Below are positions 1 through 64,000 of a stretch of DNA of 64,000 nucleotides, piece after piece. Position 1 is the first letter of the stretch; every line of letters starts with the position of its first letter. The position numbers and the translations under genes were made by a program. The DNA comes from a virus. The stretch is from positions 32,918 through 96,917 of IMG/VR virus record IMGVR_UViG_3300026549_000035. One strand, written 5' to 3'. The notes beneath the pieces were generated by a model. It made no database searches. It worked only from the letters and a program-made list of their open reading frames with translations, and was not told the DNA's origin.

Positions 1-881
1 GACGTGGTAACTCTCGTCTTATTGCTTGGGAAGGTGAAAGAACTGTTACTTTTACTATGGAAGATGCTCTTATTTCACCCGCAGGTTTTTCTATTTTAAC
101 TGGCGCAGGTTTAATTGACGCAACAGCTGAAAAGCCTATGTATATTCATAAAACAGAACAAACTGATAAAGTTACTATTACTAAATCTGGTGATGACATT
201 ACTCAAGTTTCAATTGTTTTATCAGAAACCCCGTATATTGGTAGTAATAAAGATTCAGAAGATTATATTTATGTAATGCTTCTTGACGATAATGGTGAAG
301 TAATTTCTGAGCCTTATATTGCAACTGAAGGAACATCTACTAATACTATTACAATTTTAGCAGATGAAACTTCTGAAAATCAATCTGATAATGGTTATGG
401 AGAAGGAAAATATCGTAAAAATGATTTAAGTGGTTTTAAGAACAATGGAATCGTTTTAGTAGATTATTATGTTGAAAAAACATCTGGTGCTTTCCAAATT
501 GACATTACTCCAGATAAATTTGGTGGTAACTTCTATCTTGAAGCTTCTACCTTGTTTAGAGCTACTAATGGTGTAGATATGCCTGCTGAATTTGTTATTC
601 CTAACTGTAAGATTCAGTCCAATTTTACTTTCACAATGGCATCTTCTGGAGACCCATCAACCTTTACATTCACTATGGACGCATTCCCAGATTATACTAG
701 ATGGGATAAAACTAAGAAGGTATTTGCTGCTATTCAAGTAATTGAAGATAGTGTAACTAATGCTGAACTTGAGCGTTTAGGAACTGGTCATGATTTTGGT
801 AAGGCTACTACTGGAACAAACCATGCTGAACCTTATGCAACTTATGTTACTGATCAAAAAGATCATATTGAGAAAGTTTAA
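1..881 (+). CDS. tail structural protein paralog A (5' truncated; putative major tail/tube protein)
   Basis: Frame-0 ORF continues from the window start (RGNSRLIAWEGERTVTFTMEDALISP...) and is about 55% identical to the downstream paralog. It contains no TAG codons and ends TAA at 879-881. It lies upstream of chaperone-like genes and the tape measure gene. Confidence 0.6.
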   Translation, partial: RGNSRLIAWEGERTVTFTMEDALISPAGFSILTGAGLIDATAEKPMYIHKTEQTDKVTITKSGDDITQVSIVLSETPYIGSNKDSEDYIYVMLLDDNGEVISEPYIATEGTSTNTITILADETSENQSDNGYGEGKYRKNDLSGFKNNGIVLVDYYVEKTSGAFQIDITPDKFGGNFYLEASTLFRATNGVDMPAEFVIPNCKIQSNFTFTMASSGDPSTFTFTMDAFPDYTRWDKTKKVFAAIQVIEDSVTNAELERLGTGHDFGKATTGTNHAEPYATYVTDQKDHIEKV

Positions 882-898
882 TTGAATAATTTTTAACT

Positions 899-943
899 AA
901 AGGGAAAGGGATTTAATTCCCTTTCCCTTTATTTTTTTATATA
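899..943 (+). terminator. rho-independent terminator
   Basis: GC hairpin AAAGGGAAAGGGATTTAATTCCCTTTCCCTTT followed by a T-run. Confidence 0.7.
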
Positions 944-968
944 TATTAAAAAAGAAAGGAGAAAAACT

Positions 969-2570
969 ATGAAATTTGGCGTTCGTGAAATTTGTGATGT
1001 AGTCTTAAGAGCCAAATCAGCTATGAAAATTGGTAATAAAGTTTTTTATAAAAATGAACCAGTTTTATATTTTGACACTTTAAAGACTTCTGCTTTAGAA
1101 AATGCTACAAATACGGTATATGCATAGGGTGGAAGAGGAAATGCCAAATTAATTGCTTGGGAAGGCGAAAAGACTATTACTTTTACTATGGAAGACGCGC
1201 TTATTTCTCCTATGGGATTATCTGTTTTAACAGGAGCGGGATTGGTTAAAGCGGAAGAAAAATCTATTATAGTTCATAAGACTGAAATTACTAATAAAGT
1301 TATAAATATTGGTCCAGGTTTTCCAAATAATGTAGGGATTAAAATTACTTTAAAGAATAAGCCTTACATCAATAAAGATAATATAAAATCTGAAGATTAT
1401 ATTTATGTAATGCTACTTGATGAAAAGGGGGAAGTTTGTTCAGAGCCTTATATAGCAAGTGAAACAGAAGAATAGCTCTTAAACAATAAAGAAATAAGTA
1501 TTTATAAAAATGAATCTACATATTATTCAGATAATAATAAAAGAAAAAATGATTTATCTAAATTTTATGAAGGTTGTTCAGTTTTAGTAGATTATTATAC
1601 TGAAGTAACAGAAAAAGTTTATTAGGTAAATATTACTCCAGAAGATTTCAGCGGTAATTTTTATCTTGAGGCTTCAACTTTATTTAGAACTTCAAATGGA
1701 GTTGATATGCCTGCTGAATTTATTATTCCTAATTGTAAGATTCAATCAAATTTCACTTTTACAATGGCATCTTCTGGTGACCCTACCACTTTTAATTTCG
1801 TAATTGACGCATTTCCAGACTATACTCGATGGAACAAAGATAAGAAAGTTTTTGCGGCGATATAGGTAATTGAATAGAATGAAATTACCTCTAAATTAGA
1901 AAGATTAGGAACTCCGCATAATTATAAAAGTGATGAAGATTATAATCCATTTTTAACATATAAAAAAGAACAAGAACAATATATTACTGATGAATCAGAA
2001 GAATTACTTAATGATATATTCACTTCCATTGATGTAGATGGAAAAATTTATGAAAACGTAGGATATAGAAAGAATGCCGCGTTAGTTTCTAGCAATATAG
2101 TTGGAGGAAGTGAAGGATATACAGTTACAGGTTTTATTCCTTATAGTTATGGATAGGATATTAATATCGTTGGCTTTACTAAAGAGGGAGGAGATTTTTA
2201 GTGTATTTACCTTTATAGTGATAATCATTATACTAATTCCAGATAGATAAAATGTAATGGAAAAGAAGGTATACAAAAATTCTCTCCATATGGCGATGAT
2301 TATAAAAATAAAAAATATATTCGTGTTTGTTTTTATAATACTAATCTTAGTGAAATGGCGGTCTTAGTATCTGGAAATCCAATCTCTCCAGAAGAAGAAT
2401 CTAATAATAATTTACAATCTTTATCTTTATCACCTAATTTAAATTTACAATCTAATAATAATGAAGAAGAGTCAATTTCTCCAGAAGAAGAAGTATCTAA
2501 TTTAGTAGACGAGGATTTAGATATATCTGATATTATTTCTCTTTTGGAAGAAGAAGAGAAAAAAGAATAA
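969..2570 (+). CDS. tail structural protein paralog B (about 533 aa) with acidic low-complexity C-terminal extension
   Basis: ATG at 969 with RBS AAAGGAG. Frame 0 runs unbroken to TAA at 2570 once roughly 6 in-frame TAGs are read as sense. It is homologous to paralog A over the N- and C-terminal blocks (…GNFYLEASTLFR…PNCKIQSNFTFTMASSGDP…). The C-terminus is a tail rich in E, S, N and L. Confidence 0.6.
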
Positions 2571-2599
2571 TTATTTTTTGAGATAAAGGAGTGAAAAAA

Positions 2600-4926: not shown

Positions 4927-7900
4927 ATGGCTAAACAACTATATGTTAATTTAGATGTTAGAGCAAATACCTAGCAAGCAAAGAATGAATTTTAGAGTTT
5001 ATAGAAATCTTTATCTGATATTATTGTATAGACAAATAAAATAAGCAATACATCAATTGATTCTACTTCTTTAAGACAAGCTTCTTCTGCAGCTTAGGAA
5101 TTGTAGCGTCATTTATCAAATGCTGTTAATATTGATACTGGAAAGTTGGATTTAAATAAATTAAATACTAGTTTAAAATAGTCTAAAACTAATATTGGAG
5201 AACTTTCTGGAAAGTTATTATCTGTAGGTTCATCTGGAGAATAGGCTTTTGTGAAGTTGGCTCAATCAGTGGCATCTGCAGAAAGACCAATAGTTTCTTT
5301 AGGATCAAGAGTAAATGGTTTATTAACAACTTTAAAAAATACTGCTCGTTGGTAGATTTCTTCTAGCATTTTGCATGGATTCATGGGAGCCATTTAGAGT
5401 GCTTATGGATATGCATAGGATTTAAATAGATCTTTAAATAATATTAGAATCGTTACTGGGTAGAATGCTGATTAGATGAATGAATTTGCTGTCTCTGCGA
5501 ATAAAGCAGCAAAAGCATTAAATACATCTACTTTAAATTATACAGATGCATCTTTAATTTATTATCAATAGGGTATCAAAGATTAGAAAGAAATTGAAGA
5601 TAGAACTGCTACTACCATTAAATTAGCAAACGTTTCTCGTTAGAGTGCTGAAGAAGTATCTAGTTAGATGACTGCGATTTGGAATAACTTTGAAGATGGA
5701 AGTCATTCTTTAGAGTATTATGCGGACGTAATTACTAAATTAGGTGCAACTACTGCTTCAAGTTCTTCTGAAATTTCTGAAGGTATTTCTAAATTTGCTT
5801 CAGTTGCTGATACTGTTGGATTAAGTTATGATAAGGCGGCAGCTTCTGTGGCTACCGTTGTAGCTGAAACTAGACAAAGCGCAGATACTGTTGGTACAGC
5901 TTTTAAAACAATGTTTGCTCGTGTAGAAGGTCTTAAGCTTGGCGAGACTTTAGAGGATGGAGTAGATTTAAATAAATATTCTACAGCATTAAAAACAGTA
6001 GGAGTAAACATTCTTGATTCTAATAAAGAATTAAAGGGAATGGATACTATTTTAGATGAATTGGGTAAGAAATGGAATAGTATAAGTGAAACTCAACAAA
6101 TAGCTTTAGCTCAAACTGTGGCGGGTGTTAGACAATATACTCAATTCATGTCATTAATGAATAATTATGATAAGGTTTTATAGAATGAAAAAATGGCTGA
6201 AGGATCTTCTGGAACTCTTCAAGAATAGGCTGATACTTATGCTGAAAGTTGGGAAGCAGCATAGAAAAGAGTTAAAGCTACAGCTCAAGGTCTTTATGAT
6301 GATTTATTAGATGATAAATTTTTTATTGGTTTAAATAATGTTTTTGCGGATTTATTAACTGGATTAAGTAACTTTATTAAAGGAATAGGCGGACTTAAAG
6401 GTGTCTTAATGGGCGTTGGTTCATTAGTTTTAAATTATATTTCTGATAAAATTTAGCCAGCTTTATCAAATTTAAAAAATACTGCAATAACAATGTTTTA
6501 GAGTCCTGCTAAACAAGCTCAAGTTTATAAAGACTTAATGGACAAAATTATTAGTTAGGCTAAGAATATTTCAAAAGACAGTATGACAGATTCTTTAAAA
6601 ACTAAATTATAGTATACTGATTAGTTATCAACAGCAAAAAATCGTTTAATGTCTGTTGATAAACAATTAACCGAAGCTGAAAAATAGCAAGCTTAGTAGC
6701 AATTAAACATTATTGATATGTATTATTAGGAAACTCAAGCTATTGCTAATAAATTAACTAAAGAAAAAGAAGAGATTGAAGTTGCTGTATCTTCTTTGTC
6801 TACAAATCAAGCTGTTATAGCTATAGAAGAATCTAGAAAAGATGAATTAGCAGGTTTAATTGAACTTTAGAATCAAGCTAGAGAGGGATATGAAAAAGCT
6901 TCTGGTTTTGCTGAGATTATTGAAGCTGCTGAAGCTTATAGAAAAGCTGCTGCTGAAGTTGAAAAATTTAAAACTGAAACTGATTTATTAGCATCTACAG
7001 AAGAAGATCTTGTTATTGAATTAAGAAATGGTTATGATATAATAATGTAGCAATCTAAAGGGTTAGCTGAAGGTGATGGAATAGTTATCAATTTAGGATA
7101 GCATTTAGGAACAACGGCAGAAGGATTTAAAGTATTAGCAGATAAAGCTCGTCAAGCTATGAATGGAACATCTTCAATAACAAAAGGAGAATTAATAAAA
7201 GAGTTTCGTAATCTTCAAGTTATTTTAGATTAGCTTGGTTTATCAAAAATTCCTCAAGTTGAAGACAAATTGTCAAAACTACTCTCTAAAGGAAAGAGAA
7301 CAAATTTAAAAGATTTAGAATCTGGATTTAAAGAATTATTTAATATATTAACTAATTTAAAAATTCCTGTAAGCAAAGATGCAGAATAGATTGAATGGTT
7401 ACGAAAGTTATTAATAGAAACTTTTAAAGATGGTAAAAATATTGAATATTTAAATGGATTATATAATAAAGCTGGAAAAAGTGCTGAAAATTTAGCAAAT
7501 TCTTAGAATCATTTAAATACTGCTCTTGCCTCTTTTAATCCTTAGCATATGATGTCTGGAGTAGAAGTTTTTTCAAAAATTAGTGCAGCTGGAATGCAAG
7601 CAGCGATGGTTATAAATAGTGTTAAATCAATTATTTCAGCTTGGCAGGATGAAGATATGGATCCACTTGAAAAATTTACTACTACATTAATGGGTATTAG
7701 TATGATTGTTCCAGGTGTAATTAGTTCTATTTAGGGAATTTCAACTGTAATGACTGCTTTAACTGCTGCTCATTCGCTTTTAAATATTTAGACTTAGTTA
7801 GGAATAGGTTTAAATGGAGAAAAAATTGCAGTAGATAGTGCGGAAACAGCAGAGACGATATCTAAAACAGCCGCAAATACAGGATTATTAAGTTCTGAAC

Positions 7901-10900
7901 AAGCTTTATTTGCTTAGGAAATGATGATTCAAGCAATAAAAATAAAAGGATCTGCTCTTAATGCTAAAGAAGTAGCTACCATTATTGCTAAAGCAGGTGC
8001 TACAAACATTAATACAGCTGCTTTAGGAGGAGAAGCAATTGCTACAGAAGCGGCAACTGCTGCTCAGTGGAGTTTAAATGCAGCTATGGATGCAAATCCA
8101 ATTGGGTTAATTATAGTTGCTATTATGGCATTAATTGCTGCTTTAGCTCTATTGGTAGTAGGTATTGCGGCTGTTGTTAATGCTAAATCGGAAGAAGAAA
8201 AAGCTTTAGAAAAAGCCAATAAAGAATTAGAAAAAGCTCAAGAAGAAGCTAAAGCAGCTAAAGAAGCTTATGAAAATTTATATAGTAAAGTTTCTGATTA
8301 TAAAACTGCGTATGAGGCTTTATAGAAATGCACTAAAGGAACTAAAGAATGGAAAGAAGCTTTTGAAGAAGTTTCAAATAAAGCTAATGAATTAATAGAA
8401 GCTTATCCAGATTTATTAAAATATGAAAATCTTTTTGATGCAAATGGATTAATTAATTCTAAAGCTCTAGATAAAGCTTTAAAAGAATATGAAGATAGAG
8501 TTTCTGCTACAAAAATTACTACAATTTAGAAACAAGCTAATGTAACATCTGCTCAATATGAAGTAAATAAATCAAATTTATCTGATAAAATAAAAATTAA
8601 TGATGTTAATGAACAATCTGCAAATAATATAGCTAAAGCTATAACTAGTAGTTTAAATTATCATCCAGTCGAAGCAGGAAAAGCTTTAGTTTCTAGTATT
8701 GAATCTGCGCAATTGGATGAAAAAATTTCAAATGGAGTTACTTCAGCTTTATTAGCTAACAAGGATAAAATAAATAATTATTTTGATTCAGAGTCTGTCA
8801 GTGAAGTTATTAAAAATTATTTAGAAAAAAATGCTGAAGAATATTCTTTAGATAATTCAAGAATAGACGAATTGACAAATGAATTTACTAAAAAAACAAT
8901 TTCTTTAGGAAATGACTTCGCTGATTTATCAGCTGAAACTAAAAAGACTATTACTGCGATGACAAATGCTTCTAAAATGATAGCACAAGAATTCTTTGGT
9001 GAAGAATTAAATATGTCTAATCCAGAAAAAATTCTTTCTTATAATGAGGCTTTATAGAATTATTAGATTGAGACAGAAGAAAAAATAATAAATGCAATGA
9101 ATAACGCTACCGTTGAGGCAACTGAAAAAATGGTGCAAAGTCGTGGTGCGGCTGGTATGACAACTGGAGGAATAATTTCAGAAGATTCTTATTTAAATGA
9201 AATTGGTCAAACTTATATTAATAACAATACAGATGAAGAAAAAAAGAATTGGAAATTTAAAAATGTTAGAAATGATTATTGGAATGGTACTTTAGAATAT
9301 GTATATGTAGATGAAAAAGGAGCAGAATAGGAAATAAGTGCTGATCTAGTAAAAGATTTTATGGTATAGTATGAAGCTCAAAGAGATAGAGATAAAATTA
9401 TAGCAGAAGGAGAAACGAATTCAAAAAATCAATAGTCAGATTCAGAAAAAGCTATATCCTAGTATTTAGTAAATTCAAATCTTAATGGAGCAACTATTAA
9501 ATAGGCTACAGTTTTATCCAAAATTTCAGATCCATTAGAAGCTTATTTTGGAGAAGATTATACTGATGATGATATTAAAGAAAAACTTGCTGTCGCGTGG
9601 GGAAAAGATGTTTCTGAAATTTCAGATGATGAATTTGAAACTTGGAAAAGTGGAATTGCAAGCAATTTAAAAGAAGTATAGGACATGATCGCAGAAACTC
9701 CTAATTTTATTAAAAAAGCTATGGGAGATGACTTAATTAATTCTTTAAGTGTAGAAGCTTTTCCAAAAGTTACTGAAATGTTTTCTTAGGCTTATGTTTA
9801 GAATGGTCAAGCTGGTGTAGATATGTTAAAGAGCATTGTTGATTCTGCGGGAGATGAATCTAGTTAGGTTATGGCTGCTTTATCAGATATGGACTTTGGC
9901 ACAATGAATATTGACGATGCTAATACTGCATTAAAAAATTTAGGAATCTAGTTTTAGTTAAGTGAAATATAGTTTTATAGTTTAAAAAATACTTTATAGG
10001 ATATTAGTACTGTTACCGCTGAAACAGCTAAAGAAACTTATAAGACTGTTTCTTCAATTCTTTCTAAGCTAAAAGCAGAAGGAGATATTATTGAAGATGA
10101 GGATTATTAGAAATTATTAGCTTTGAATCCTGCGATAGAGTCTTTTTTCATTACTTTAGCAGATGGAACTCATATGTTAACTGGAGAAGTAAAAGATTTT
10201 AAAACTGCTATGCAATCAGCTTCACTTAATCAATTACAATAGGTTTAGGAAAATTCTCAAAAGACAGCTTTAGCTTATGGAAAACTTTCTTCAAGTGGTT
10301 CAGTATCAGGATCTTTAAATAATATTAATGATTTTGAAAATAGTTCTTAGGCTGAAATATTAAATGCTCAAATTCAAGTTATGCGTGATTAGGGAGAAGT
10401 CGATCGTGCTAATAATTATGAAGTTCAATTAAAAGATGCTTTAGATACTGGAAATCTTGAAAAATTAAATCAAATTTTAGAAAATGGTAATTAGTCTTGG
10501 ATAGATTATGGCGTTTCAACTGAAGAGGCGACAAAAAAAATTGAAGAAGCTGAAAAAGAAGCTGGAGAGTTAACAGAAGCTATAAAAGAATAGTAGTATC
10601 AAAACGAAATTTCTAATGCTGGATTGGAATATGAAGCAACTGAAAATTATGCTGATGTATTAATGGAGCTTTATGAAGCAGAAGGTTTAAGTAAAGACGC
10701 GGCAAGAGAGTTAGCTATAGCTAATCAAAGAGTTGATAGAGGTTTAACTTCTTTAAATGATAATTTAGATGATTGGAAAACTAGTTTAGAAAAAACAAAT
10801 AAAGCTAGTGCTGAATATGCTGAAACTATTTCTGGATTAAGAGAATCTTTTTCTGATTTATTAAATATTGCAGATGGAAGTGAGTTATCTCTTAGTTGGA

Positions 10901-13900
10901 TTGAGAAGTGGGCTAAGAGCGCCGATATGACAAAAATCCTTGATGGAGATACAGAAGCCTTAGAAAGATTTAGAAAATCAGCTTTTACAGAAATGACTAC
11001 AAACGTATTTTCAGACATGAAAGATTCAGTTGAAGCTTTAATAGAAGATTTAGATTAGGTTAAAGATGCAGCTTATTTATCTGATTTATAGAATCTTTCA
11101 AATGTTTTAAATGATGGAACTTTTTCTGCTGAAAATTTACGAAATGCAATCTAGGATTTAGGAAATCAAGAGATTGGATCCGGCGCAACTTTAAGTGATG
11201 AGTATGTAGAATCTTTAAATAGTATGTTAGCTGCAGGTTTAATGACAGAGCAACAATTAAATGATATTTTTGCTACTATTGGATATAAACCAAAAGTTCG
11301 AACTGCGTCTGTTGATCAATGGGTTGAAATACCTATTTATAAAACAACCGAAGAAATTACTGAAGACACTTCTTCTGGTCTTATGAGTAATCTTTTTGGT
11401 GGAACTCGAAAATCTACTCGTACTGTTGTTTCAAAAACAGTGTAGACTGGTACAGAAAGAATGTTGCAAAAAGTGCCTGTCACTTAGATAGAATCTGCTG
11501 ATACAGCAGGAGGAAATATTGAAATTGTTAATGCAGGAAGTAATAACATTACTCCTTCTTATAGTTCTACTACAACGGGCTCAGGCAGTAACAGTGATTC
11601 TTCATCAAACTCTTCTTCAACACCTACTACTAAAGTAGCTTCTCATACTCATGAAATAAATCGTTATACAGCAGAAGAAAATGCTATTGATGGACTTTCA
11701 AAACAATATGAGAAACTTAATAATATTAAAGACAAGTCTTTTGGAAAAGGTAAAATTCAAGCTATTGAAAATGAAATTAAAGCTTTAAAAGAACTTAAAT
11801 AGGCTTCTACCAACTATATGGATGCTATCGTTGGTGATGGTAATGGTAAAAGAATTGCTGAAGCTATATATCGTGGTGAAAATATTGGCGATCTATTAAG
11901 AAATGGCGCAATTAGTGGTAATTTAGGTTCTGATTATAGAGCTTTAAGCTATGGCATTAGTGCTTCTGGAAAATAGGTTGAATATACTGCTAAAGATGAA
12001 GCAGGAAATGAATGGTTGGCTTCTCGAGATTATAATATAAATGATTTTAATGCCATGTTTGGAACTAACATTCATTTTGATTTAGACGCTTTTGGCAATA
12101 TACAAAATGCAGATTCTATTAGAAATTAGCTTCAATAGTTAAAAAATAATGAATCTGATGCTTATTCTAGTATTGCAGATCCAACTGCAAGCTCTACAAC
12201 TAGATATAATGAACGTATGGCTTATATTGATGAAATATTAGACCGTATGGACACTTTTGGAGATTCTATTAATACTCTAAGTGAACAATCTGAAGAATAT
12301 CTTGACTATATTACTTAGCTTCAAGAGAAAAATGCTGAATTAATTACTTCTAAAATGGAACTTGGAGTTGAATTAGGAGATAAGAGTTTACGAAGAATCG
12401 ATCGTGCTTTAAAAGTTTTAGGAAATGATATATATAGAAGTACTGAAGCTATGAAAAAAGCTTTTGAATTAAATGATCAAAAAATAGAGTCTTCTTAGGA
12501 AAAAGCTTAGTCTTATCAAGAGATGATGAACGAAGCTGAAAGAAGATTTGCTTTATATCAAAAAAATCCTTTAAATGAAGATGCTATTACTCCTGCCGAA
12601 TATGCTGAAATGCTTTCTACTGCTGAAGAAGGATTTGAGTCTATTGCAGATGAAATGCGAGAATATATGAATTATTTTTATGATATGTATTCTGGAATGC
12701 AAGATTATTGGGAAGAAAAAATATCTCGTATTACTAAACAAATGGAAGATAGTATTAAAGTTTTAGAATATTATCAAAAAGTTTTAGAGCTTACAGGGCG
12801 TTCTGGAGATTATGAATTAATTGGAAAAATTTTAGAGGGACAAGCAGAAACAGCTAAGACTATATTTGAAACTTCTCAAGCTCGAGCTGAATTAGCCAAG
12901 AAAGAATGGGAAAGACAAAAAGATGATCTTGAAAAAGCAAAATTAGATCCAACTCTTTCTAAAGATTTATTAGATACATTAGAAAATATGACTGAATTAG
13001 CTTATGAAAAATATGTTGAAGCAGTTGAAACTGCAAGAGAAGATTCCTTAAATTATTTAGAAATAACTCAAACTGCTTTTGAAAATAAAATTAAACAAAT
13101 GCGAGTTGAATCAGAAAAATTCTTGACTAACGGAAGTGATTTTGATAGTTTAAATAAATCTATGGAAAGACAAAAGAGTCTGTCTGAGGATTATTTAACT
13201 AAAACTAATTAGCTTTATGAAACTAATAAGATGTTACGTCAATTAAATCAAGATATTGATAAAACAGACAGTGTTATAGCTAAAAATAAATTAAAAGCAT
13301 TTGCAGATGAAATTTCAGCCATGCAAGACCAAGAGAAATTAAGTAATACTTCTTTAGAGATTGCTAAAGCGAAATATGAAATTTTATAGGCTCAAATTGC
13401 TTTAGAAGATGCCTAGAATGCAAAATCCACAGTATAGTTAAGAAGAGATTCTGAAGGTAATTATGGATATGTATACACAGCTGATGAAGAAGCTGTAAAT
13501 AATGCTTAGCAAAACTTAGAAGATAAAGTAAATGCTTTATATAATTTAGGTAAAAAAGCCAGTGAAGATTTTGCTGAACGAATGATTTAGTTAGAATAGG
13601 AAGAGTGGGCAGAAATTGAAGAAATAGCTAATAATACTATTCTAACTACTGATGAAAAGAATATTAAAATTGCTGAACTATAGGAATATTATAATGCTAA
13701 AAGATAGGCTCTTTCTGAGCAATATGAAGAAGCTAATTTGGCTCTTCAGCAAGGAGCAGTCGCGCAAAGACTTTTAATCACTGATAAATTTAATACTGAA
13801 AATCTTGATATTGAAAAAGTTGCGGCTGAAGCTAGAGCAGAAGCTTGGACAGAAAGTTTTGCTACTACAATAAAAGATTAGAATACTTATGAAGCACATT

Positions 13901-14853
13901 TTAAATAGCTTGCATCACAATTAAAATCTGAGATGTAGAAATTGGATGATAAAAGAAAATAGCATGAACAAGCAACTAAAACAGGAAATAAAGAAATTAA
14001 AGAAAGTATTGATGATATTACTGATGCAGTTGATGATTTAAGTTATGAGATTTTAAAAAGAGATGGTCTTTTAGATTCATACAGTGATGCTTTAAATGCT
14101 TCTAATGCTTTAAAAGATTCTTTTAAAAGATAGTATGAAACAGCAAGAGAATTAGCTAATCAATATTCTAATGCCGCAGATAGAGCTAGTAATTTATATA
14201 CAAAAACAGTTGATTTAATTAATGCTTAGGTTGCTCTTAACCATGCAAATAATGGAGCTACTTATGTAGAGTGGGGTCCTGGAGGAGTTACAGCAGATTA
14301 TAATGGTAATACTGTTTCTAATGGTGGAAATGGAAATAACTCTAGTAATAAAATTTCTGTTGATAATAAATCTCAGTTTAAAAAAGTAGACCCAAGTAAA
14401 GTAATTTTATGGCAAGATGAATATTATCATTTTAAAAATGGAGATATTTCAAAGATTAATAATAGAGGCGCTAAATATGGATGGGAATGGGATGAGCTTG
14501 GTTATAAATATAAAACAGGTGGTTATACAGGCTCTTGGAATGGACCAGATGTAGAAGAAAATGGAAAGTTAGCTTTCTTACATCAAAAAGAATTAGTATT
14601 AAATGCAGATGATACTGAAAATATGTTAAATGCAGTAAAATTAATCCGTTAGATTAGTGAATCTATTGATTTACAAGCTGCAGTTTAGAGTTCTTATTCC
14701 GTTGGAGCAATTTAGTTCCCTGGAAATAATCAAGTTTTATAGCAAGAAGTTACTATTCATGCAGAATTTCCAAATGCAACTGATCATAATGAAATTGAAG
14801 AAGCATTTAACTCTCTTGTTAATAGAGCTTCTCAATATGCAAATCGTAGTTAA
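4927..14853 (+). CDS. tail tape measure protein, about 3,308 aa, with dozens of TAG sense codons
   Basis: RBS AAAGGAG then ATG 4927. Frame 1 is continuous to TAA 14851-14853, and every in-frame stop is TAG. Hallmark tape-measure blocks are present (LGATTASSSSEISEGISKFASVADTVGLS…TAFKTMFARVEG), with long coiled-coil regions. The C-terminal region is the conserved Gram-positive siphophage block (…KTGGYTGSWNGPDVEENGKLAFLHQKELVLNADDTENM…). Confidence 0.9.
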
Positions 14854-14981: not shown

Positions 14982-17900
14982 ATGTCATAGAATAAAATCG
15001 ATTATCCAGAACAAATTTATAAAGCAATAGATATTATAACTAATAAACGATTAGAAGCTCTTTAGTATGATATTACTATTGAAGCAACTATTACTGATGA
15101 TGCATAGGCTGAAAAAGGTGTTTATACTGTATCTAATGGAAATGCTAGCTTTTTAGCTTATAGTAAAGATTCTGAATATAAAAATAATGATGTAGTTATG
15201 GTAACTATTCCACAAGGTAATTACAATAATCAAAAAATTATTGTAGGAAAAAAAATAAATGAAGAAAAAGAAGAAACACCTATTGAATTTAAAAGACCTT
15301 TTTCTAATTTAATTAATATTACAAATAATATTTTAAGTAATGAGAATTAGAAAAAGGAATATAGTTTTATTGCTAATGGAGAAGAATATTGTTGGGATAT
15401 AACTGCTTCGGATATTTTATAGTCTTCTTATAGTCAAAATGATTATATTTCAATAGATTTATCTGAGATTGGTTATACTCGAGTTGGTGTAAAAGCAGAT
15501 TTTTTAACAACTTTAAAAGAATATCAAGTTGTTTCTGGTAATTATGGACTAGAATTTATTTTAACTTTTTCTAATGATCCTCTTTCAGAGGAAAAAATTA
15601 TTAAAACTTTTTCATTAGATAGTAGTAATTTTTTTGGTAATATATATAATTTAGATATTTATCAAAATTAGGAACTTGTTTTTGATATATCTGATATGGA
15701 AAACTATATTTTAAAAAAGATATAGATTTGTCCATATCAACGGAAAAATTTTAAAAATATAAATAATGAAGATATTTCAAATAAAGTTCCTTTTGATAAT
15801 ATTTTTATTAAAAATATTTATATTTGTTTAGGAACATCTGCAATAGATTTTGATAAAGATTCTGTAAAAATTACTACAAAAAATAGCCTTCTTTATAGTA
15901 AGAATAATGAAAAAAATAATGTAAAGATATTAAATCTTTAGTGGATTCATAAAAATGAAGATAGTAATATAATAAAAGTTGTTCAAGAAGATGAAATTCC
16001 CACTAAATATCATATATGGTGGTATATATATGATAGAGAAAGCTCTGATTTGTATGCGGGAGCAGGATGGAAACGTTTTTATGGATGTAAAACTATTATG
16101 AATCCAAAAACAGGAGATTATTTACTTAAAAAAGAAGAAATTAAAAATGAAGAATTAAATTTAAGATATCCAGAAGATGTAACAGATCATTTAGAAGACA
16201 TCTATTTTTTCCCTAATGGAAATGAACAAACTCAATAGTTAAAAGTTATTATTGTAAAAGAAAAAAATAATATTAATGAAGAAAATGCTTTTACAGATAA
16301 TTCAGATATTTATTTTTATGATAAAATTGTAGAATCAACAATTTTTAAAATTGAAAATGAAAATGAAGTCGCTAATAAACAAAGTATTATAGATGCAAAT
16401 GCATTATCTATTAAAATTGATGATAATTCATACGGAAATTATTGTTTATATAATCGGGCTGGGAATATTTTATTAGGTGAAAATACTAAATTAAGAACTT
16501 TAACGGCAGTTTTTGATCCATATGAAAATGAAGTTTATAATAAACCAATTTTAAGTTAGCCTTATAGTTTTATAAAATGGATAATTCCTGCTTCTAATAC
16601 GATGATAATCCCAATTGTAGAAATTGTCGATGAAACAGAAATTGTTGTTTTATAGTAGCCTTCTAATTATGATATTGAAACTTTTCAAAATAACCATCAA
16701 GGAGTTAATGAATATCCCTTATATGATGAATTGACAGCAGGGAAAGGATATAAAATTATTTATAATATAAGTTAGAAAACTTTTGAATATATTGCAGAAG
16801 ATATTGTTTCTAATCAAATTCCTTTAGTTAAAATTGGTTATTATATTAAAGATTTTTTAAATTATAGTAATAATCGAAACACTATTTCTTTAGAAATATT
16901 AAAAGAAGGTTCATCTTATAACGCTTTAATTAATCTGTCTTTTAGTAATTCTGGAGTTTCTGGTTCAGATTATGATATAAAAGTAGATTGGAGCGATAAT
17001 GCTTTTGATATTAATAAAGGAGTTCTTTCAGGTCGAGTCATTTTAATGAAGGATTAGAATGAAATAGATATTGGTTCAGGAGAATATGAATATAGCTGGT
17101 ATAAAGTAAACGCATTAGATAAAACCTCTAAACAATAGATAAAATTTGATTCTAAAATTGAAACAAATAAAGAATTATATTATCCAGTGACTGATGGAGG
17201 CTCAGATGGAAAACTTAGGACCCATTGCGATTGCATGTATATATATATAAATTCTAAATTTAAATATTATGGTGATAATGGAACTGGTAAACCAAAATAT
17301 TGGTTAAGTGGATATAATAAAGAGTATAATACTGATCAATTAGCTTGGTATGACGTGACAAATAAAGAATTTAAAGAGATAACTTCAATTTCAGATTCTA
17401 ATCCAGCGACATTAAATAAACATCAAGAAAAAATTATTTATAGTAAAACTTCAGAAGATAAAAGAAAAATAATATTTAAACCTTTTGATTTTGTATCTAC
17501 AGATAAGTATAATAATAAAGAAGGTGTAGCTGTTTTTAATAATAAGTCAACCTATTATTATAGCAGTACTCGTAGAGCTTTTGTTAAATGCGATGGTAGA
17601 TATATAATTGATCCATGGAATAAATATAGAGAAGATATCTAGTATTATTATCCTGATTATGCAGATGAAAAAATATATGATTATAATACATATAACATTT
17701 TAAAAATTATAAATGATAATTCTTAGCCCAATTCTTTTATAATTACAGATGATGAAAATCATACTAGAAAACCAAATATGCAAGATTTATATATATTACA
17801 AATTACATTAAATAATTTTATTGATTATCCTTTAACGGCTTATTTTCCAATTGCTTTAAAAAATAGTGATATAAATAAAAATTTTATTGTATCTGGATTT

Positions 17901-19862
17901 GAAGGGCCTACAGAAGTTAGATATTCAACTGATGGAGAATTAGACTTTAATAGAGCAACATATGCTATTAATGCGAGCATGTTAACATCTGAGAGACAAT
18001 ATAAAAGAATCCCATTTTATGAACAAAAAACAGCTTATAAAAAAAATTCTCATCAATATGATCCAATTCATTATTATCATTGGGAAATAATATTGCCACC
18101 AGAAAATGGAAATATTAATTTTTATCCTCAATTAGAAGATTTAGAAACAAAAAAGATTGGTGCAGCAGGCTATTAGCCAATATTAAATCCTCCTGCGGTA
18201 TATTTTGAAAATTAGTCATTTTATGGAGTTTCTTTTGTTGTAGATCAAAATATATATTTTAATGATTATGAAGAAGTAGAAATGCTATCAGATAATAATG
18301 AAGATATTAAAATTCCTAAAAGGACTATTTTATGGACTTAGCCAATATATTCTTATCAAGAAAAATATCCTTCTACAACTTTAAATAATTGGAATGGAAG
18401 AGAGATTTTAACAGATAATAACACAGGTATTATTTTAGCTAAAGGATTTTCCGCAGGAAAAAAAGAAAATGATAATACTTTTACTGGAGTTGTAATTGGT
18501 GATTGGTCAAAAACCGATTCTAATATTTAGTTAACTAAAGATACTGGAATTTTTGGTTTTAATCATGGGGCGATGTCATATGCATTAAAAGATGATGGAA
18601 CAGCTTTTTTTGGAAAGGATGGTAAAGGTCGAATTTATTTTGATGGCAATTCGGCTCAAATTTATTCTGCAAATTGGATAGAACCATCTTATTCTAATGG
18701 TTTATATGATATAAGGAAAAAGGGGATGATGTTAGATGTAGATGATGGCATTATTAATATTATTTCCCCTGATTCAAAAATAGACTTTAAATTTATAACA
18801 GATTCAACTAAACCTAACTTTGAAATTTCTTATTATAATTATGATAAAAATAATGAAAATTTTAAAGAAGAGTTAATGACAGATTTATGGTAGGAATATC
18901 ATAATATATTTAAAATATCACTAACATCTCCATATTTGCGAATTGGATCTACTTCTAAGGAGTTTTATTATGGATCTGACTTTGCAAATCTTCATACTCC
19001 CGCATCAGGAATTACTTATTTTACTGAGTGGATACGTATTAATGATAATGGGGGCTGGATCTGTTCTAATAATTATATGCCAACAGCCTCTAAATGGTTA
19101 AAAACTTCTGGATCTTGTTATTATGTTGCAAGTAAAGAAATTTTTCCTGATAATATGAGTTCTCGTGAATATCATTGTTGGGGAGACAATACAAAATATC
19201 CTTTTTCTGGACTAGTATTAGATTTAACTCATGGAAATCTTGTTTTAGGAAATGATTCTGAAATAAAAGGATACCAGACTGGTCAATGGGCTTCAACTGT
19301 TGAGGGCAGAAAAGAAAGAGTATTTCATATTTCAAATGGTGCAACAAATGAAATGTCTGATAGTGGTGCAATATTATCAAAATATAATAGTTCAAACGAT
19401 TTAGGATATTTTATTTTAGCTTAGACTATTGAATCAACTCCTAACCATATTCTTGAAAGTTCTCATTTACCATATAATGATAATTATAAAGACGTCTTTA
19501 GAGTAGGTTGGAATGGAAATGTAACTTGTAGTGGATAGATATCTTCTGGCTCGTCTATAAAATTAAAAAAGAATATTAATTATAATATTAATAGTGAATT
19601 ATTATATAAATTATCACCTGTATCTTTTTAGTATAAAGAATCTGAAGATATTAATTATGGTTTTATTGCCGAGGATGTTTATAAAATATTACCAGAAGTC
19701 GTTCGAATGAAACACGGTAATTCAAAAGAAATTTTTGGATTAAATTATAATAGTATTTTTACTTTAGCTGTAGCAGAAATCCAAAAATTAAGAAAAGAGT
19801 TAGATAGTTTAAAACAAAAGTTAGAGATAAAGGAGAATAAAAATGAATATGATATTAACTAA
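14982..19862 (+). CDS. tail fibre / distal tail protein with C-terminal peptidase S74 intramolecular chaperone domain, about 1,626 aa
   Basis: RBS AAAGGAGTG precedes ATG 14982. Frame 0 is open to TAA 19860-19862, with all track ORF pieces in frame 0 and only TAG interrupting. The C-terminal 130 aa match the S74 chaperone/autoprotease module of tail fibres (…SSHLPYNDNYKDVFRVGWNGNVTCSGQISSGSSIKLKKNINY…GFIAEDVYKILPEVV…NYNSIFTLAVAEIQKLRKELDSLK). Confidence 0.7.
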
Positions 19863-20223
19863 TAATGAAATTTATAATTATGCAACTTCCTTGTAGGAGA
19901 ATTTTTCTAATAACGAAACAAAATTTCCTATAAAAGTTAATTTTTATTTGCAAAAAAATTTAAATACTTTAATAGAACTTGCGAAAGAGATAGAAAAATA
20001 GCGTATTGAAATTATTCAAGAGTATGGTGTTGAAAATAAAGAAACTCAAAAAATTGAGGTTCCCGCAGAAAAAACTCAAGAAGCAACAGAAAAAATGAAT
20101 GAGCTTTTTGATTTAACTCAAGAAGTTCAAATTTATAAAGTAAAACTTGATGCTTTTGGAGATATTTCTTTAACCCCTGGACAAATGCAAGCGTTATTGT
20201 TTATGATAGATGAAGAGGAATGA
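19843..20223 (+). CDS. hypothetical protein, 126 aa
   Basis: ATG 19843 (RBS AAGGAG) overlaps the fibre gene's 3' end in frame 1. The gene ends TGA 20221-20223 and carries 2 TAGs. Confidence 0.4.
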
Positions 20224-20229
20224 TGCAAA

Positions 20230-22641: not shown

Positions 22642-22643
22642 AA

Positions 22644-35089: not shown

Positions 35090-35602
35090 TTAATGTTCTT
35101 TTTTTTCATTTTCTCTTATTTCCTTCATATTTAAAATTCTTTGATTGCGGCTTCCGCGCATAGCGAGGGTAATATCTCTTTCAGATAGTAAAAAAGGTCC
35201 TTCAATTAAATAATCTATGTTGTCAAAAACCATATCTATTTTAGGTTCTATCTTCTCAATTAATTCCTATAATTGCTCATAGGTATAGCCTGTCCAAACA
35301 TAAATTTTTATATTAGGATAAACCTTTCTTACTTCTGTGATAATCATCGCTGTTAAAAAAACATTTTCTCCACAAAGAGGTTCTCCACCCATAATACTTA
35401 AATTTCTTTGAACCCCATTGGCATGTAAAGCTTCGATAATTTCCTATAAAACTTCTGGAGTGAATTCTTTTCCGCCATTAAAATCCCAAGTCTAAGGATT
35501 CTGACAACCAGGGCAATGAATAGGACAGCCCTAGGTGAAGAAGCTAACATTAACTCCTTCACCTGCAGCAATATCATTTTTTATAATACCGGCATATCTC
35601 AT
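35090..35602 (-). CDS. nrdG: anaerobic ribonucleotide reductase activating protein (radical SAM), about 170 aa
   Basis: MRYAGIIKNDIAAGEGVNVSFFT[Q]GCPIHCPGCQNP… carries the CxxxCxxC radical-SAM motif of NrdG with 4 TAG codons. The start ATG overlaps the TGA of nrdD exon 4 (ATGA). Confidence 0.8.
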
Positions 35603-48269: not shown

Positions 48270-49406
48270 TCAAGCCACAACAACGAGTCGATCTATTGCA
48301 CGAGTAACTCCAGTATACATATATTTACGACGTTCATCTGGATCTCTAGGCCATCCGGGCTCTTGGAATAGTAAAACTTTATTCCATTCGCTACCTTGAG
48401 CTTTCCAAACGGTAATTGCATATCCAAAATTAAAGTGTAACGGTATTCTTTTATCTTTTATCTGTTTATATATAATATATTCTTCTTTACTTGTCAAAGA
48501 AGGCTTTCCAGTAAAAAGTTCTGAATAATCAGCACATAGCCCTTCAAATTCTTCGCCTTCTTCATCTCCGTATATAGTAGTAGTTAAAACTGGAACTGAA
48601 AGATCTTCTTTTCTTAACCAAAAAGGATAATTCCAATTTTCGACATTAAATTCTTTAATAGAACCAATAACTCCATTAGTTAAAGGATTCTCATGATTTG
48701 ATAATATTTCCCATTCGTTATGTAAATTGATAACTTTATCTCCAACTTGAGGCTGATTTGGATCAAATCCATAAGATGCTCTAACTTGTTGATTTAATGA
48801 ATTTTTAGTTTGTCTTGTTGCACATAATATCTAATCCGCCCAAGTCATCATTGAAACAGAAACTTCTCCGCGAGGAATAATCATAACCTGTTCTTTAGCA
48901 CATGGAAAAGCCATAATTGGTTTTCCTTCTCTTACATGCATAGATAAACGAATAATTTCACTCTCTTGGGCTTGACGCATAATCTCATCTAAAAAGATAT
49001 GAGGATTGTCTAAGACATGATTATTTGGATCTTCTTCCATAGATGTTTTATTCCATATTGGCGGCAACTGTTCAGGGTCTCCGCAAGCAAGAATATAGAA
49101 GTTATGACTACATAATAAATCCCACATTTTTTTTGGAAGCATTGATATTTCATCTACTACTACAACTTTAATTTTTAAGTCTATCTCAAAAGGCTTTTTA
49201 GGAGTGAAGGCATATTTACCACTTGGCATTAACTTTGCATGATATAATAATTTATGCGCTGTCATTGAACCAGGACATCCTTTATTTTTTAAAACATTTG
49301 CAGCTTTTCCAGTGTAAGCTACATATCGGACTTCTGATTCATCTAACTCCATTGCCGCAATAATAAATTTTATTAGAGTTGATTTTCCTGTACCTGCCTT
49401 AAGCAT
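48270..49406 (-). CDS. Dda/RecD-like superfamily-1 DNA helicase, about 378 aa
   Basis: Walker A LKAGTGKST, Walker B VVVDEISML, and C-terminal GYAITVWKAQGSEW…YTGVTRA. Track ORFs 48831..49406 and 48270..48497 are in frame and joined through TAGs. The true start may be an upstream TTG at about 49457. Confidence 0.75.
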
Positions 49407-53686: not shown

Positions 53687-53692
53687 CAGGTT

Positions 53693-54031
53693 TCATAAGT
53701 TTATATTCCATGTGCCAAACTCTCCTTCTAATTCTCCTTCACCATAAAAATCATAGGCTTGATATGGACAAAATTTAGTAGCAGGACGTACAAAAGTATT
53801 AAAATCTTCAATAGAAACATTTCGTTCAACTAAAGATATATTACATCCATGTCCTCTAGAATTATCATCAATTTTTAAAAGTTTCCATATATCGCCATTT
53901 TGAAAAACGATTTTATCTGGATATGAAAAAATTTTATCTATTCTTATATTATTTTTTGCATAATCATCTACTAATTGTTGTAATCGACTTTTTCCTTTTT
54001 CTTTATTATAATACCATATAATACCATACAT
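53693..54031 (-). CDS. hypothetical protein, 112 aa
   Basis: ORF track. Its start overlaps the primase stop (TAATG). Confidence 0.45.
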   Translation of the reverse strand: MYGIIWYYNKEKGKSRLQQLVDDYAKNNIRIDKIFSYPDKIVFQNGDIWKLLKIDDNSRGHGCNISLVERNVSIEDFNTFVRPATKFCPYQAYDFYGEGELEGEFGTWNINL

Positions 54032-55167
54032 TAATATAATTTCACTCTTTCTTTAAATAATTTTAAAAATACTTCCTATCCATGGTCTATCGGCGCAGAT
54101 TTATAATCTGTAATTTTATGTTTATCAATAATACAAGATATGTTAACATAATTCTTATATTTTTTTGTAATTTTTTTTAAATTTTTAATTAAATGGATAA
54201 ATTCATCATCGCCTAAATTTTGAAACTACCTATCAAAGGCAATAATTATTTCTTGCGCACCAGCATCAATTAGGAGCTAAGCTTGATATGCAGAAAAACT
54301 ACTGCCGCAACAGGCTACTGAAATATCATTATCTATTCCAAAATAGCTTTGGTATTTAAGAGAACTTTTTTCACCTTCAAATACTATTGCTTTTTTAATT
54401 TTTGGAATAATACAACGACTATTGTTAAAATTATATAAATTTAAACCAAGAGGATGATTATATAAAATTCCATTTACTTTAATTGGTCTATACTTACCAT
54501 ATAATTCAATATCTTCTTCAACAAAATTACGTCCACGTAATCCTATAAAACGATTATCTTTATCATAATGTGGAATAGTAATCTATTCTCCTCCTGGATA
54601 ATATCCAATTTTAGCTCGGTTTAATACTTCTTGAGATATACCTTCTTCTAACCAAGGGGTTAATTTTATTTTATAATTAAATCTATCTAAAATAGATTTA
54701 TCATATTCTTCTAATATGACATGAGGAGTTCCAGCCTGAATATCTTGAATACGAGAATAATTCGCTAAAATTTTCCAATCTTCTAGCCCTTTTTCTTTTG
54801 GACTATCTTCTTCTCTACCTGCTCTTCCAAAACGTCTAGCTATCCATCTTACAGCATCATTTAAGTCATATTTAATATTATGCTATAAATCCATAACTTT
54901 TATACATAACTAAAAAATATCAAATACAGGGTCTTCACAGCCTGTATAACATCTAAATAGACCAGTATTTTCATAATAATATAATTTACGGGAAGCTCCA
55001 TCATTTAATCTGTTATGACATATAGTTCGGGCGATGAGCCCAGTAGGACAATACTCTGGCTCACCACCCCATTCTTCAAGTAAATCATATACTTCATTAA
55101 TTGATAAACTTTCCCTTATTTCTTGTTTATCAAAAATTAACATTAGTAAAGAGTCACCTTCGTGCAA
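54031..55167 (-). CDS. DNA primase (CHC2 zinc finger + TOPRIM), about 378 aa
   Basis: Track ORF 54910..55167 (…YCPTGLIARTICHNRLNDGASRKLYYYENTGLFRCYTGC…, a CHC2 Zn finger) continues through TAGs into a TOPRIM-like region (…IVFEGEKSSLKY…AFDR[Q]F…) and ends TAA at about 54031. Confidence 0.65.
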
Positions 55168-62376: not shown

Positions 62377-62457
62377 AAAATTACCTCCATTATTTTATTT
62401 CTTTTTCATAAGAATATAAAAAAATAAAAAGATAAAATAATGGATTTTGACCAATTT

Positions 62458-62829
62458 TTAAATAATTTTTATATCTTTTCCTTGTTGTGTAATACTGTAT
62501 ATCACCGGGTCTTGACCAACTTTTTCTACAAAACCATCATTAACTAGTTTACGGATAGATCCAGATACCGTTCTAGAAGAAATAAACATTCCTTCGGCAA
62601 TATCTTTTGCTTTCCATGTATTAGTTTCTGGGTGTTGCTGTAAAAAAGTTAAAATAAGTTTTCCATTTTCAGTGAATAAAGGTTTTTCTCCTTTATCCGC
62701 TCCGCCTTTAAATTTTTCCCAATACTCATTTAAGTTTTCTGGCATAGGGTTTCTTTCAAAGTTACTTTCTACATAATTAATAAAATCTTGTTTTAATGAC
62801 ATTTTTTTTATAAACTCCTTAATTTTCAT
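62458..62829 (-). CDS. winged-helix DNA-binding protein (putative transcriptional regulator), 123 aa
   Basis: ORF track: …AEGMFISSRTVSGSIRKLVNDGFVEKVGQDPVIYSITQQGKD is MarR/PadR-like wHTH. Confidence 0.45.
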   Translation of the reverse strand: MKIKEFIKKMSLKQDFINYVESNFERNPMPENLNEYWEKFKGGADKGEKPLFTENGKLILTFLQQHPETNTWKAKDIAEGMFISSRTVSGSIRKLVNDGFVEKVGQDPVIYSITQQGKDIKII

Positions 62830-62889
62830 TTTCTATATATATTATATAATATTTTTATTTGAAAGTCAATCTTTTTATCTTATTTTATT

Positions 62890-63738
62890 TTATTCTTTAT
62901 ATCTAAAAATATATCCTTTACAACTTTTTGAACGTCCCTAACAAACAGAGCATATATTACCTGGAGTAGTTTTAAGTGCTCTAGCTGCTTCAGATATACT
63001 TTTAAATTCTTTTATAAATTTTCCATCTTTAGAAAATTGCTAAACAACTCTATAAGGCGGTTTATATTTTATTTTTTCTATTGTGGAGGAATAACTCCAA
63101 TAATATCCATATGCTGTTTTTTGTCTTCCTTTACAGCAAGCGCAAATTTTAGATTTATCTATATTTAATTTATTTGCGGCTTCTGTTAAAGAAGAAAATT
63201 TTTGTATAAAATTTCCGTTTAAATCAAATTGATATATATCTTTAGATTTTTGTTTTTCTTTAGGTAAAATAATTGTATTATCATCTGCATATTTCCATTG
63301 ATAATCTCCAGCATAAAATCTTTTTGGGTAATGCTAACATACGCTAATTATTTTTTCACTAGAAGTATTAGTATCTAAAGCAGCTTCTACAATTGAATCA
63401 TACTCTTTAACAAATTCTCCTAATTCATTAAAGGATTGAACCGCTCTTTTTAAACTTCCTTCTCCTCCTAAAGTCATATTATATCCTTCTTCATAAGAAT
63501 TATATTCTTTAATCCAAAAAATTTCTCTTTCGTTTAATAATTCTGGAGGACATTCTTCTATTACTTCAAAAGAAAAATTATTTAATCCATATTTTTTAAA
63601 AGCTTGATGAATAGCACAATTGTCTTTACTTCTTTTATGTTTTTCCCATCTTGCTTTTATATCTAATGATTGTCCAATATATATTTTATTATTTATTAAA
63701 TTTTTAATTTTATATATTCCACACATTAATTTTATCAC
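62890..63738 (-). CDS. GIY-YIG homing endonuclease with three C-terminal repeat modules (free-standing), about 282 aa
   Basis: Track ORF 63334..63738 (MCGIYKIKNLINNKIYIGQSLDIKARWEKHK…GYNMTLGGEG) continues through 3 TAGs with three …EAA…L……I..C..G..K.A.GY.W.Y repeats. Confidence 0.8.
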
Positions 63739-63802
63739 CTCTATTTATTTATAAAAGTATTAGCTATAAAATTAAATAAAAGTGGCCTGTTTTTAATAAA
63801 AA

Positions 63803-64000
63803 TTAATTAGTTAAAAATTCTTTAGCATATGGAAGAGTTTCAATCCAATGACAAAATTCCTACCATTCTGGCAAACGATGATCATGACGCTAGATATATA
63901 TATTTCTAAGACAACGATAATTTGTTGTCATTCTTGCAGTCAGTATAAATCCTGCGGGATTTGTATAAAGAATTTCTAAATATTTTTCTTTAGCCTATTC
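63803..64000 (-). CDS. hypothetical protein (3' end; gene continues beyond window)
   Basis: The minus-strand frame is open from the window edge through TAGs to TAA at about 63803 (…TARMTTNYRCLRNIYI[Q]RHDHRLPEW[Q]EFCHWIETLPYAKEFLTN). Confidence 0.3.

Follow-up and report, generated by a model that had tools for sequence, protein, structure and literature searches.

Gene content and in-frame TAG codons

The window analysed here is a stretch of 64,000 nucleotides, positions 32,918 to 96,917 of the IMG/VR virus record IMGVR_UViG_3300026549_000035. It is identical over 11.5 kb to contig k141_7166 of ENA ERZ27252065 (177,555 bp), in which it corresponds to positions 32881-96880, and so represents part of the genome of a tailed phage of some 178 kb. 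Its genes are interrupted by TAG codons, and we conclude that in this part of the genome TAG is very probably a sense codon for Gln, with TAA and TGA staying stops.

The GC content of the window is 28.7%. Under the standard code, with three stops, it holds 62 open reading frames (ORFs) of at least 100 amino acids, totalling 10,202 amino acids, but only three of at least 300, the longest having 456. Reading TAG as sense gives 21 ORFs of at least 300 amino acids and a longest of 3308. Freeing TGA instead gives four, with the maximum still at 456, and freeing TAA gives ten, with a maximum of 525. A run of 3308 codons free of both TAA and TGA has a probability of around 10^-86. Gene calling was done greedily and without overlaps, with TAG read as sense, and yielded 62 genes covering 90% of the window. 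At least one TAG is present in 53 of them (85%), with 292 TAGs among 19,256 codons, while 52 genes end in TAA and 10 in TGA. No functional class present lacks TAG-bearing genes: they occur among the structural, lysis, replication, nucleotide-metabolism and homing-endonuclease genes alike, and along the ORFs the TAG positions are evenly distributed. The principal features are listed below, where EF1 is Enterococcus phage EF1 (MF001358), phAss-1 is the phage of record OQ749652 and L numbers denote loci of other sequences used for comparison.

3..881 (+): virion structural protein, truncated 5' by the start of the window and free of TAG; tblastn matches to 'virion structural protein' in Enterococcus phages
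969..2570 (+): paralogous structural protein of 533 amino acids, tandem paralogue of 3..881; 8 TAGs
4927..14853 (+): tape-measure-like ORF of 3308 amino acids with 96 TAGs and a TAA end; homology to a giant ORF of EF1 and to the tape-measure region of phAss-1
14982-19862, 20230-22641 and 22644-25643 (+): large tail/baseplate-type ORFs with 25, 10 and 16 TAGs
19843-20223 (+): small ORF with 2 TAGs and a TGA end, within the tail/baseplate-type group 14982..25643
29735..30124 (+): holin (phrog_13712 holin, E 5e-29); 1 TAG
30768..31253 (-): RuvC-like resolvase with 5 TAGs; TAA 4 codons past the EF1 C-terminus
33825-34175 and 32173-32382 (-): dUTPase in two exons which, joined, align continuously with PDB 3h6x; TAG at 32269-32271
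32607-33734 (-): homing-endonuclease gene inside the dUTPase insertion, which splits dUTPase motif 3
35090..35602 (-): NrdG, the anaerobic ribonucleotide reductase activase (Pfam Fer4_12, Radical_SAM); 4 TAGs
39831-41096, 38687-39025 and 36923-37471 (-): nrdD in three exons (Pfam NRDD, ATP-cone), contiguous on the uninterrupted phAss-1 NrdD
39156-39680 and 37513-38424 (-): GIY-YIG genes, one in each nrdD insertion
46779-48206, 44417-45583 and 41847-42932 (-): DNA polymerase III alpha (DnaE/YorL-like) in three pieces; 4 TAGs in 1224 amino acids
45741-46526 and 43407-44294 (-): GIY-YIG genes between the dnaE pieces
48270..49406 (-): RecD/PIF1-like helicase with 1 TAG and a TGA end; matches the EF1 RecD-like helicase, with Pfam families in the gene tables of relatives
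53064-53711 and 50863-52005 (-): recJ (DHH) in two exons with 13 TAGs, which match the uninterrupted RecJ of L026 at its residues 2-207 and 208-586
52172-52891 (-): GIY-YIG gene in the 1058-bp recJ insertion
54031..55143 (-): primase-like protein; 6 TAGs
~56170-57204 and 55356-55868 (-): dnaB in two exons, mapping onto the intact 514-amino acid DnaB of L026
59338-60321 (-): AAA_24 ATPase with 6 TAGs and a TGA stop (gene table of L023, k141_7166)
60490-61437 (-): YorF-like protein; 1 TAG
61471-62376 (-): inserted HNH-type endonuclease; 10 TAGs
62458-62802 (-): MarR-like winged helix-turn-helix protein; no TAG

Two further observations concern the structural region. The paralogue at 969-2570 combines its TAGs with a long acidic C-terminal extension, the upstream copy at 3-881 being TAG-free. 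Directly after the tape-measure stop lies a palindromic hairpin (14848-14899), with weak Rfam matches on both strands, that is probably a terminator.

TAG is crossed by homology, TAA and TGA are not

A test that does not depend on gene calls was made with tblastn, placing the standard-code ORFs of EF1 onto the window. The resulting high-scoring segment pairs (HSPs) run through 74 distinct TAG codons, no TGA and a single TAA, although TAA occurs 2.5 times as often as TAG among the trinucleotides of the window. The lone TAA is the genuine nrdD stop at 36923-36925, reached by HSP overrun. Moreover, TAA or TGA lies 1-7 codons past the C-terminus of the homologue in the tape measure, dUTPase, RuvC, the DnaE C-terminal piece and the AAA_24 ATPase (four TAA, one TGA), the tape-measure TAA standing just one codon past the end of the EF1 alignment. 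TAG is thereby confirmed as a sense codon in the window, with TAA and TGA still acting as stops, as an initial sequence-only reading had proposed.

The same state is visible elsewhere. The public-collection gene calls on k141_7166 give full-length products for genes with up to 10 TAGs, so an automatic gene caller had already handled TAG as sense. A second independent sample (L024, Logan assembly SRR7971122) has the same genes, and a 3.6-kb stretch of it is identical to the window.

Two wider claims of the sequence-only reading need narrowing. It held that long genes were broken exclusively by TAG. There is indeed no in-frame TAA or TGA, but dnaE, nrdD, recJ, dnaB and the dUTPase gene are also split by intron-like insertions, so that TAG is not their sole interruption. 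It also called the recoding genome-wide, which can be demonstrated for the window and the 8.8 kb beyond it, and no further.

In six genes a TAG lies 1-5 codons ahead of the terminal TAA or TGA. We considered whether TAG might be the true stop in these, and rejected the idea: their number is about that estimated by chance (~4.5, a rough figure from TAG density), and near-terminal TAGs are therefore no evidence that TAG ever terminates. In one mobile gene, the GIY-YIG gene at 45741-46526 (-), the sole TAG precedes the TAA stop by one codon ('...IEE-TAG-R-TAA'). Here TAG may once have been the stop, backed up by the TAA, in a gene acquired not long ago, a state indistinguishable from an ordinary Gln codon.

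The amino acid encoded by TAG

The window proteins, with TAG represented as X, were aligned to six-frame translations of EF1, which serves as a reference for the residues opposite TAG because it uses the standard code, and of standard-code IMG/VR relatives. The latter were retrieved with the TAG-free structural protein, TAG-recoded and standard-code members being among them, and were sorted by an ORF-sum classifier (TAG, TGA or standard) that is crude in AT-rich DNA and is used as an indication only. The same alignments supplied an empirical substitution profile for each of the 20 amino acids, against which the TAG columns were scored by likelihood. Gln faces TAG in 29.8% of 302 columns; ordinary Gln codons face Gln in 34.9%, and the background frequency of Gln is 4.0%. 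Gln is the best-scoring amino acid, with Glu next; the gap to Glu is 18 nats in the 89 columns from EF1 alone and 107 nats over all 302 columns. Lys trails by 38 to 159 nats and all other amino acids by more. Counted by site, Gln is most often the majority residue, at 32 of the 117 covered TAG sites as against 18 for Glu.

Codon exchange among close relatives points the same way. Compared with the recoded relatives L025-L027 (75% amino acid identity), 97 window TAGs face TAG 33 times, CAA 31 times and CAG three times and, conversely, CAA or CAG in the window stands opposite TAG in the relatives 23 times. TAG pairs with CAA/CAG 34 times but with GAA only six. In these alignments, TAG, CAA and CAG act as synonyms across the close recoded relatives. 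Within the window itself, two of the three sites aligned between the tandem structural paralogues (3-881 and 969-2570) have TAG facing a Gln encoded by CAA, namely 1623-1625 and 1863-1865 ('AFQIDITP' and 'AAIQVIE' in the upstream copy).

Individual motifs had been put forward as places where TAG replaces an invariant Gln. All were located: the 'YIG-TAG-T' of two GIY-YIG endonucleases at 38362-38364 and 32030-32032, close to the ~38360 and ~32030 originally given; the L-TAG-ARW of an endonuclease at 32012-32014; the NrdG FFT-TAG-GCP at 35531-35533; and the dUTPase motif-4 GDKIG-TAG-GVFL, for which the codon lies at 32269-32271 and not at ~32240. Invariance, however, stands up only for dUTPase, where the TAG is opposite Gln in all three PDB dUTPases shown, and was overstated for the other two families. 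In NrdG, the TAG of 'FFT-x-GC' faces a Gln of pyruvate formate-lyase activase while other TAGs face D and K. The residue following YIG in nine GIY-YIG paralogues within the window runs Q, TAG, TAG, I, Q, K, C, M, Q, so that Gln there is the commonest residue without being invariant. In NrdD, the TAG at 40440-40442 is opposite Q in 9d3x, the remaining one being at a variable position. Taken together, the alignments indicate that the residue inserted at TAG behaves as Gln. The checks suggested with the sequence-only reading, so far as they were run, gave the outcomes it predicted.

A candidate decoding tRNA in relatives

The closest IMG/VR relative, IMGVR_UViG_3300021400_000219, is itself TAG-recoded and shares 70-76% DNA identity with the window genome over gyrase, ligase and yorF. 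A pattern search for a CUA anticodon arm located in it a 75-nt class I tRNA (L172, 277-351) adjoining tRNA-Leu(UAA). This tRNA has G2-C71, G3-C70, G10, G73, an unpaired 1-72 and U35, which are identity elements of E. coli tRNA-Gln. Three CUA tRNAs are present in phAss-1, two of which likewise adjoin tRNA-Leu(UAA); ARAGORN picks these up, and is therefore able to find such tRNAs.

The position of the tRNA in the relative bears on where an equivalent might lie. No tRNA is seen in the ~20 kb upstream of its gyrB, the CUA tRNA being elsewhere on the contig, with its cluster outside the ~32 kb read around gyrB. Homologue searches with the small ORFs adjoining the L172 tRNA found no match on the window's own contig. 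By analogy with the relatives, UAG in the window phage would be decoded by a phage-encoded tRNA of CUA anticodon lying outside the window, within the remaining ~105 kb of the genome. Such a tRNA would presumably be charged with Gln by the host system, either by glutaminyl-tRNA synthetase (GlnRS) or by glutamyl-tRNA synthetase (GluRS) followed by GatCAB, and would compete with host release factor 1.

A wider view of the clade comes from a gyrB query, which retrieved 306 IMG/VR relatives, the longest of their contigs reaching 178 kb. Tracts with tRNAs of UCA anticodon occur on the contigs of L039, L057, L058, L059, L068 and L074 (70-73% amino acid identity) and tRNAs of CUA anticodon on L028/L172 and L096/L187, while others look standard-code, by crude ORF-based calls. 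More than one change of code has apparently taken place in the gyrB clade, in keeping with the published account of the 'Agate' phages. Among the tRNAs of these and other contigs are two of UUA anticodon, which would read TAA (L187, 2021-2094; L151, 2898-2972), and ARAGORN predicts transfer-messenger RNA genes inside tRNA arrays at L068 1498-1906, L187 4572-4852 and L197 7283-7560.

Distribution of TAG among gene classes

TAG accounts for 36% of all Gln codons, but unevenly so. Its share is 45% in structural genes against 28% in the replication and nucleotide-metabolism core (chi-square p 1e-4). The 13 homing-endonuclease genes stand between these at 37%, and for dnaE, nrdD and the recD-like gene the share is as low as 10%. 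Nevertheless, 16 of the 17 replication and nucleotide-metabolism genes contain TAG, including those for DnaE, DnaB, primase and RecJ, and dnaE has two within its first 160 codons. Since essential replication genes hold TAG, the suppressor must act before or during replication, and not just late. The gradient leaves room for the earliest enzymes to be less dependent on suppression, and it points in the direction of the model in which late genes are recoded.

Alternative explanations

Several results weigh against decoding of TAG as Gln by a phage tRNA. Most TAG sites are variable, Gln being the majority residue at just 32 of the 117 covered. Sequence comparison separates Gln from Glu only statistically; with EF1 alone the figures opposite TAG are 17 for Gln and 15 for Glu. 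The suppressor tRNA envisaged in the sequence-only reading was found in relatives only: the window has no tRNA of any kind according to ARAGORN and to Rfam, both at the gathering threshold and at E<=1, and there is none in the 8.8 kb past its right end, where gyrase and NAD-dependent ligase are encoded. Nor does any release factor or aminoacyl-tRNA synthetase gene appear among the window proteins scanned, which did not comprise every ORF.

The count for Glu with EF1 alone speaks for the alternative that TAG, though sense, specifies another amino acid, Glu being the main candidate. A Gln-type suppressor charged by a non-discriminating GluRS and left unamidated would insert Glu, while Lys or pyrrolysine, Leu, Ser and Tyr could come from class II suppressors; some CUA tRNAs of other phage contigs do have long variable arms of Leu/Ser/Tyr-like type, and the ARAGORN label for CUA tRNAs is 'Pyl'. 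We consider this very unlikely given the likelihood margins reported above for Glu, Lys and the rest, the Gln in motif 4 of dUTPase, where the site is strictly conserved, the rarity of exchange with GAA relative to CAA/CAG in close relatives and the class I structure and Gln-type identity bases of the CUA tRNA of the nearest relative. Still less credible, and in our view ruled out, is that the TAG-bearing genes are pseudogenes or the TAGs assembly or sequencing artefacts. Nothing beyond the raw presence of stops suggests it, whereas the effect is confined to a single stop codon, the in-frame TAGs occur in 53 genes with conserved flanks, TAG interchanges with CAA/CAG in relatives and the same state recurs in many independent assemblies, among them L024 with its identical stretch.

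Decoding as Gln by a phage tRNA must also be set against readthrough achieved with no dedicated phage tRNA, through a host that reads UAG as Gln or carries a natural amber suppressor, or through disabling of release factor 1 by the phage. The lack of a tRNA in 72.8 kb of this genome would fit, and in the survey of Borges et al. (bioRxiv 10.1101/2021.08.26.457843) a TAG suppressor tRNA was detected in no more than 40% of the phage genomes recoded at TAG. We nonetheless think it improbable. Relatives of the same clade have CUA tRNAs while other members have UCA tRNAs or a standard-code look, a mixture from which it appears that the code travels with the phage and not with the host; and those 72.8 kb leave about 105 kb of the genome in which the tRNA could lie, the CUA cluster of the relative likewise lying outside the stretch read around gyrB. 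A different idea, a refinement more than a true rival, is that TAG acts as a regulatory timer, TAG-rich late genes going untranslated until suppressor tRNA accumulates, a proposal that Borges et al. (bioRxiv 10.1101/2021.08.26.457843) made with respect to lysis and structural genes. The descent in TAG share from structural genes through the core to dnaE, nrdD and the recD-like gene is in its favour. However, with TAG in nearly all core genes, dnaE, dnaB, primase and recJ included, and the holin having just a single TAG, there is no clean split in the window between early standard and late recoded genes, and we regard a timer as a rather doubtful possibility here.

Mobile insertions in the replication module

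The minus-strand region 32173-57204 is rich in mobile insertions, nrdD and dnaE each lying in three pieces and recJ, dnaB and the dUTPase gene in two. There are two insertions in nrdD, two in dnaE, one in recJ and one in the dUTPase gene, each with an endonuclease ORF. In all, the 64-kb window contains 13 homing-endonuclease genes of the GIY-YIG, HNH and LAGLIDADG types, several of them free-standing between genes, and 12 of the 13 have TAG. Uninterrupted alleles are found in relatives (L026, L027 and phAss-1), on which the exon ends map to adjacent residues.

The insertion in dnaB differs in being free of ORFs. It is 301 bp long (55869-56169, minus strand) and gives a full-length match to the Rfam family RF00028 (Intron_gpI). 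The score, from a targeted scan of 481 bp, is 25.4 bits (E 1.8e-4), which is below the gathering score of 50. Scans of the whole window with Rfam detected no intron, the group I match in dnaB being seen in the targeted scan only, and the endonuclease-bearing insertions have no Rfam match at all.

Comparison with known phages

A near-identity DNA search of the GenBank phage collection gave trivial short matches only. More generally, the window phage matches a published phenomenon, in line with the original suggestion of code 15-like recoding as in gut phages. Code 15, in which TAG is read as Gln, is known in gut phages of the crAss-like, Lak and other clades (bioRxiv 10.1101/2021.08.26.457843) and has been validated by metaproteomics in crAss-like phages (PMC9523058). 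Like these, the window phage has TAG at Gln positions, retains TAA and TGA as stops, is of low GC content, has relatives with suppressor tRNA(CUA) and shows a higher TAG density in structural genes. It departs from the crAss-like and Agate representatives mapped by Borges et al., which have standard-code replication genes, in the near-universal presence of TAG in that class; the same authors call TAG use in replication genes 'variable' (bioRxiv 10.1101/2021.08.26.457843).

Genomes of the Agate clade of Borges et al. are of 154 +/- 27 kb, compared with 177.6 kb here and 127-178 kb in relatives. As in Agate, codes 11, 4 and 15 all occur among close relatives, early genes contain group I intron endonucleases and the relatives derive from many independent metagenome assemblies. 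The Agate lineage that Borges et al. analysed in depth is TGA-recoded, unlike the window genome, which is TAG-recoded. The window phage matches the 'Agate' description, the comparison being by description only since the terminase is outside the window.

Among annotated records, phAss-1 and EF1 are the nearest. phAss-1 belongs to the proposed genus Phassvirus, with tape measures of 3149-3209 amino acids (PMC10607447), and its record is labelled 'Caudoviricetes code 15 clade' and lists three tRNA-Sup-CTA genes. It shares with the window phage the reading of TAG as Gln, a tape measure of more than 3100 amino acids, and nrdD, nrdG, dnaE, recJ and thymidylate- and dUTPase-type genes, as well as, through the relative L172, the location of CUA tRNAs beside tRNA-Leu(UAA). 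There are differences too. TAG occurs in 28% of phAss-1 ORFs against 85% of window genes, and the phAss-1 nrdD is uninterrupted whereas that of the window has two insertions. The matches of phAss-1 to the structural and replication genes of the window are in a different gene order and its proteins have 25-57% amino acid identity. Window positions 26000-50000 have no megablast match to OQ749652; the three members of Phassvirus share 80-86% nucleotide identity with one another. From the low protein identity and the lack of a megablast match, the window phage does not belong to the genus Phassvirus.

Enterococcus phage EF1 and the VRE9 phages have homologues of most window genes, at 23-57% identity. 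Their genomes are of comparable size (~134-142 kb) and, as in the window, their nrdD and dnaE are interrupted by introns or HNH genes. Unlike the window phage, they are cultured and use the standard code.

Variable arms of suppressor tRNAs

Outside the window, the phage suppressor tRNAs themselves offer a lead. Those compared were from IMG/VR loci L118-L337, sharing the anticodon arm GGUCU-NNN-AAACC, together with phAss-1 (L018, 12442-12532). Many of those with a long variable arm have in it a hairpin with a 7-nt loop that copies the cognate anticodon loop. In CUA tRNAs, N-U-(C/U)UG-A-N, the Gln anticodon loop, is found in 20 of 29 unique long arms, on eight distinct stems. In UCA tRNAs, 35 of 64 unique long arms have N-U-CCA-A-N, the Trp anticodon loop, on 26 distinct covarying stems of 4 to 7 bp. 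There is zero crossover of the Gln and Trp motifs between the CUA and UCA sets (Fisher p 9e-14 and 3e-8). The UCA long-arm type is present in the clade of the window phage (L057, 182-277; L074, 499-594) and the CUA type in the more distant phAss-1, while the nearest sequenced relative has a short-type CUA tRNA with no extra arm.

We tentatively suggest, as a lead and not a result, and with the balance still tilted against it, that the variable arm might be a decoy anticodon letting host GlnRS or tryptophanyl-tRNA synthetase, both anticodon-dependent, charge a stop-reading tRNA. The literature searched contained no description of an anticodon-loop copy in a variable arm, which is not proof that none has been published. 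How suppressor tRNAs are charged was left as an open question by Borges et al. (bioRxiv 10.1101/2021.08.26.457843), and a decoy anticodon, if true, would be a solution to it.

Significance

TAG recoding in phages has been described repeatedly since 2014, with confirmation by proteomics in other phages. Both recoding itself and the mixture of codes within a clade are already published, the window phage being a further example, and specialists would find its recoding unsurprising. In practice, the window genes need translation table 15, since table 11 fragments the tape measure, tail proteins, polymerase, helicases and endonucleases. As an example it is heavily recoded, with TAG in 85% of genes, replication genes and all but one of the homing-endonuclease genes included. 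The clade also holds TGA-recoded and standard-code members, and is therefore a useful natural series for the extent and order of the spread of recoding.

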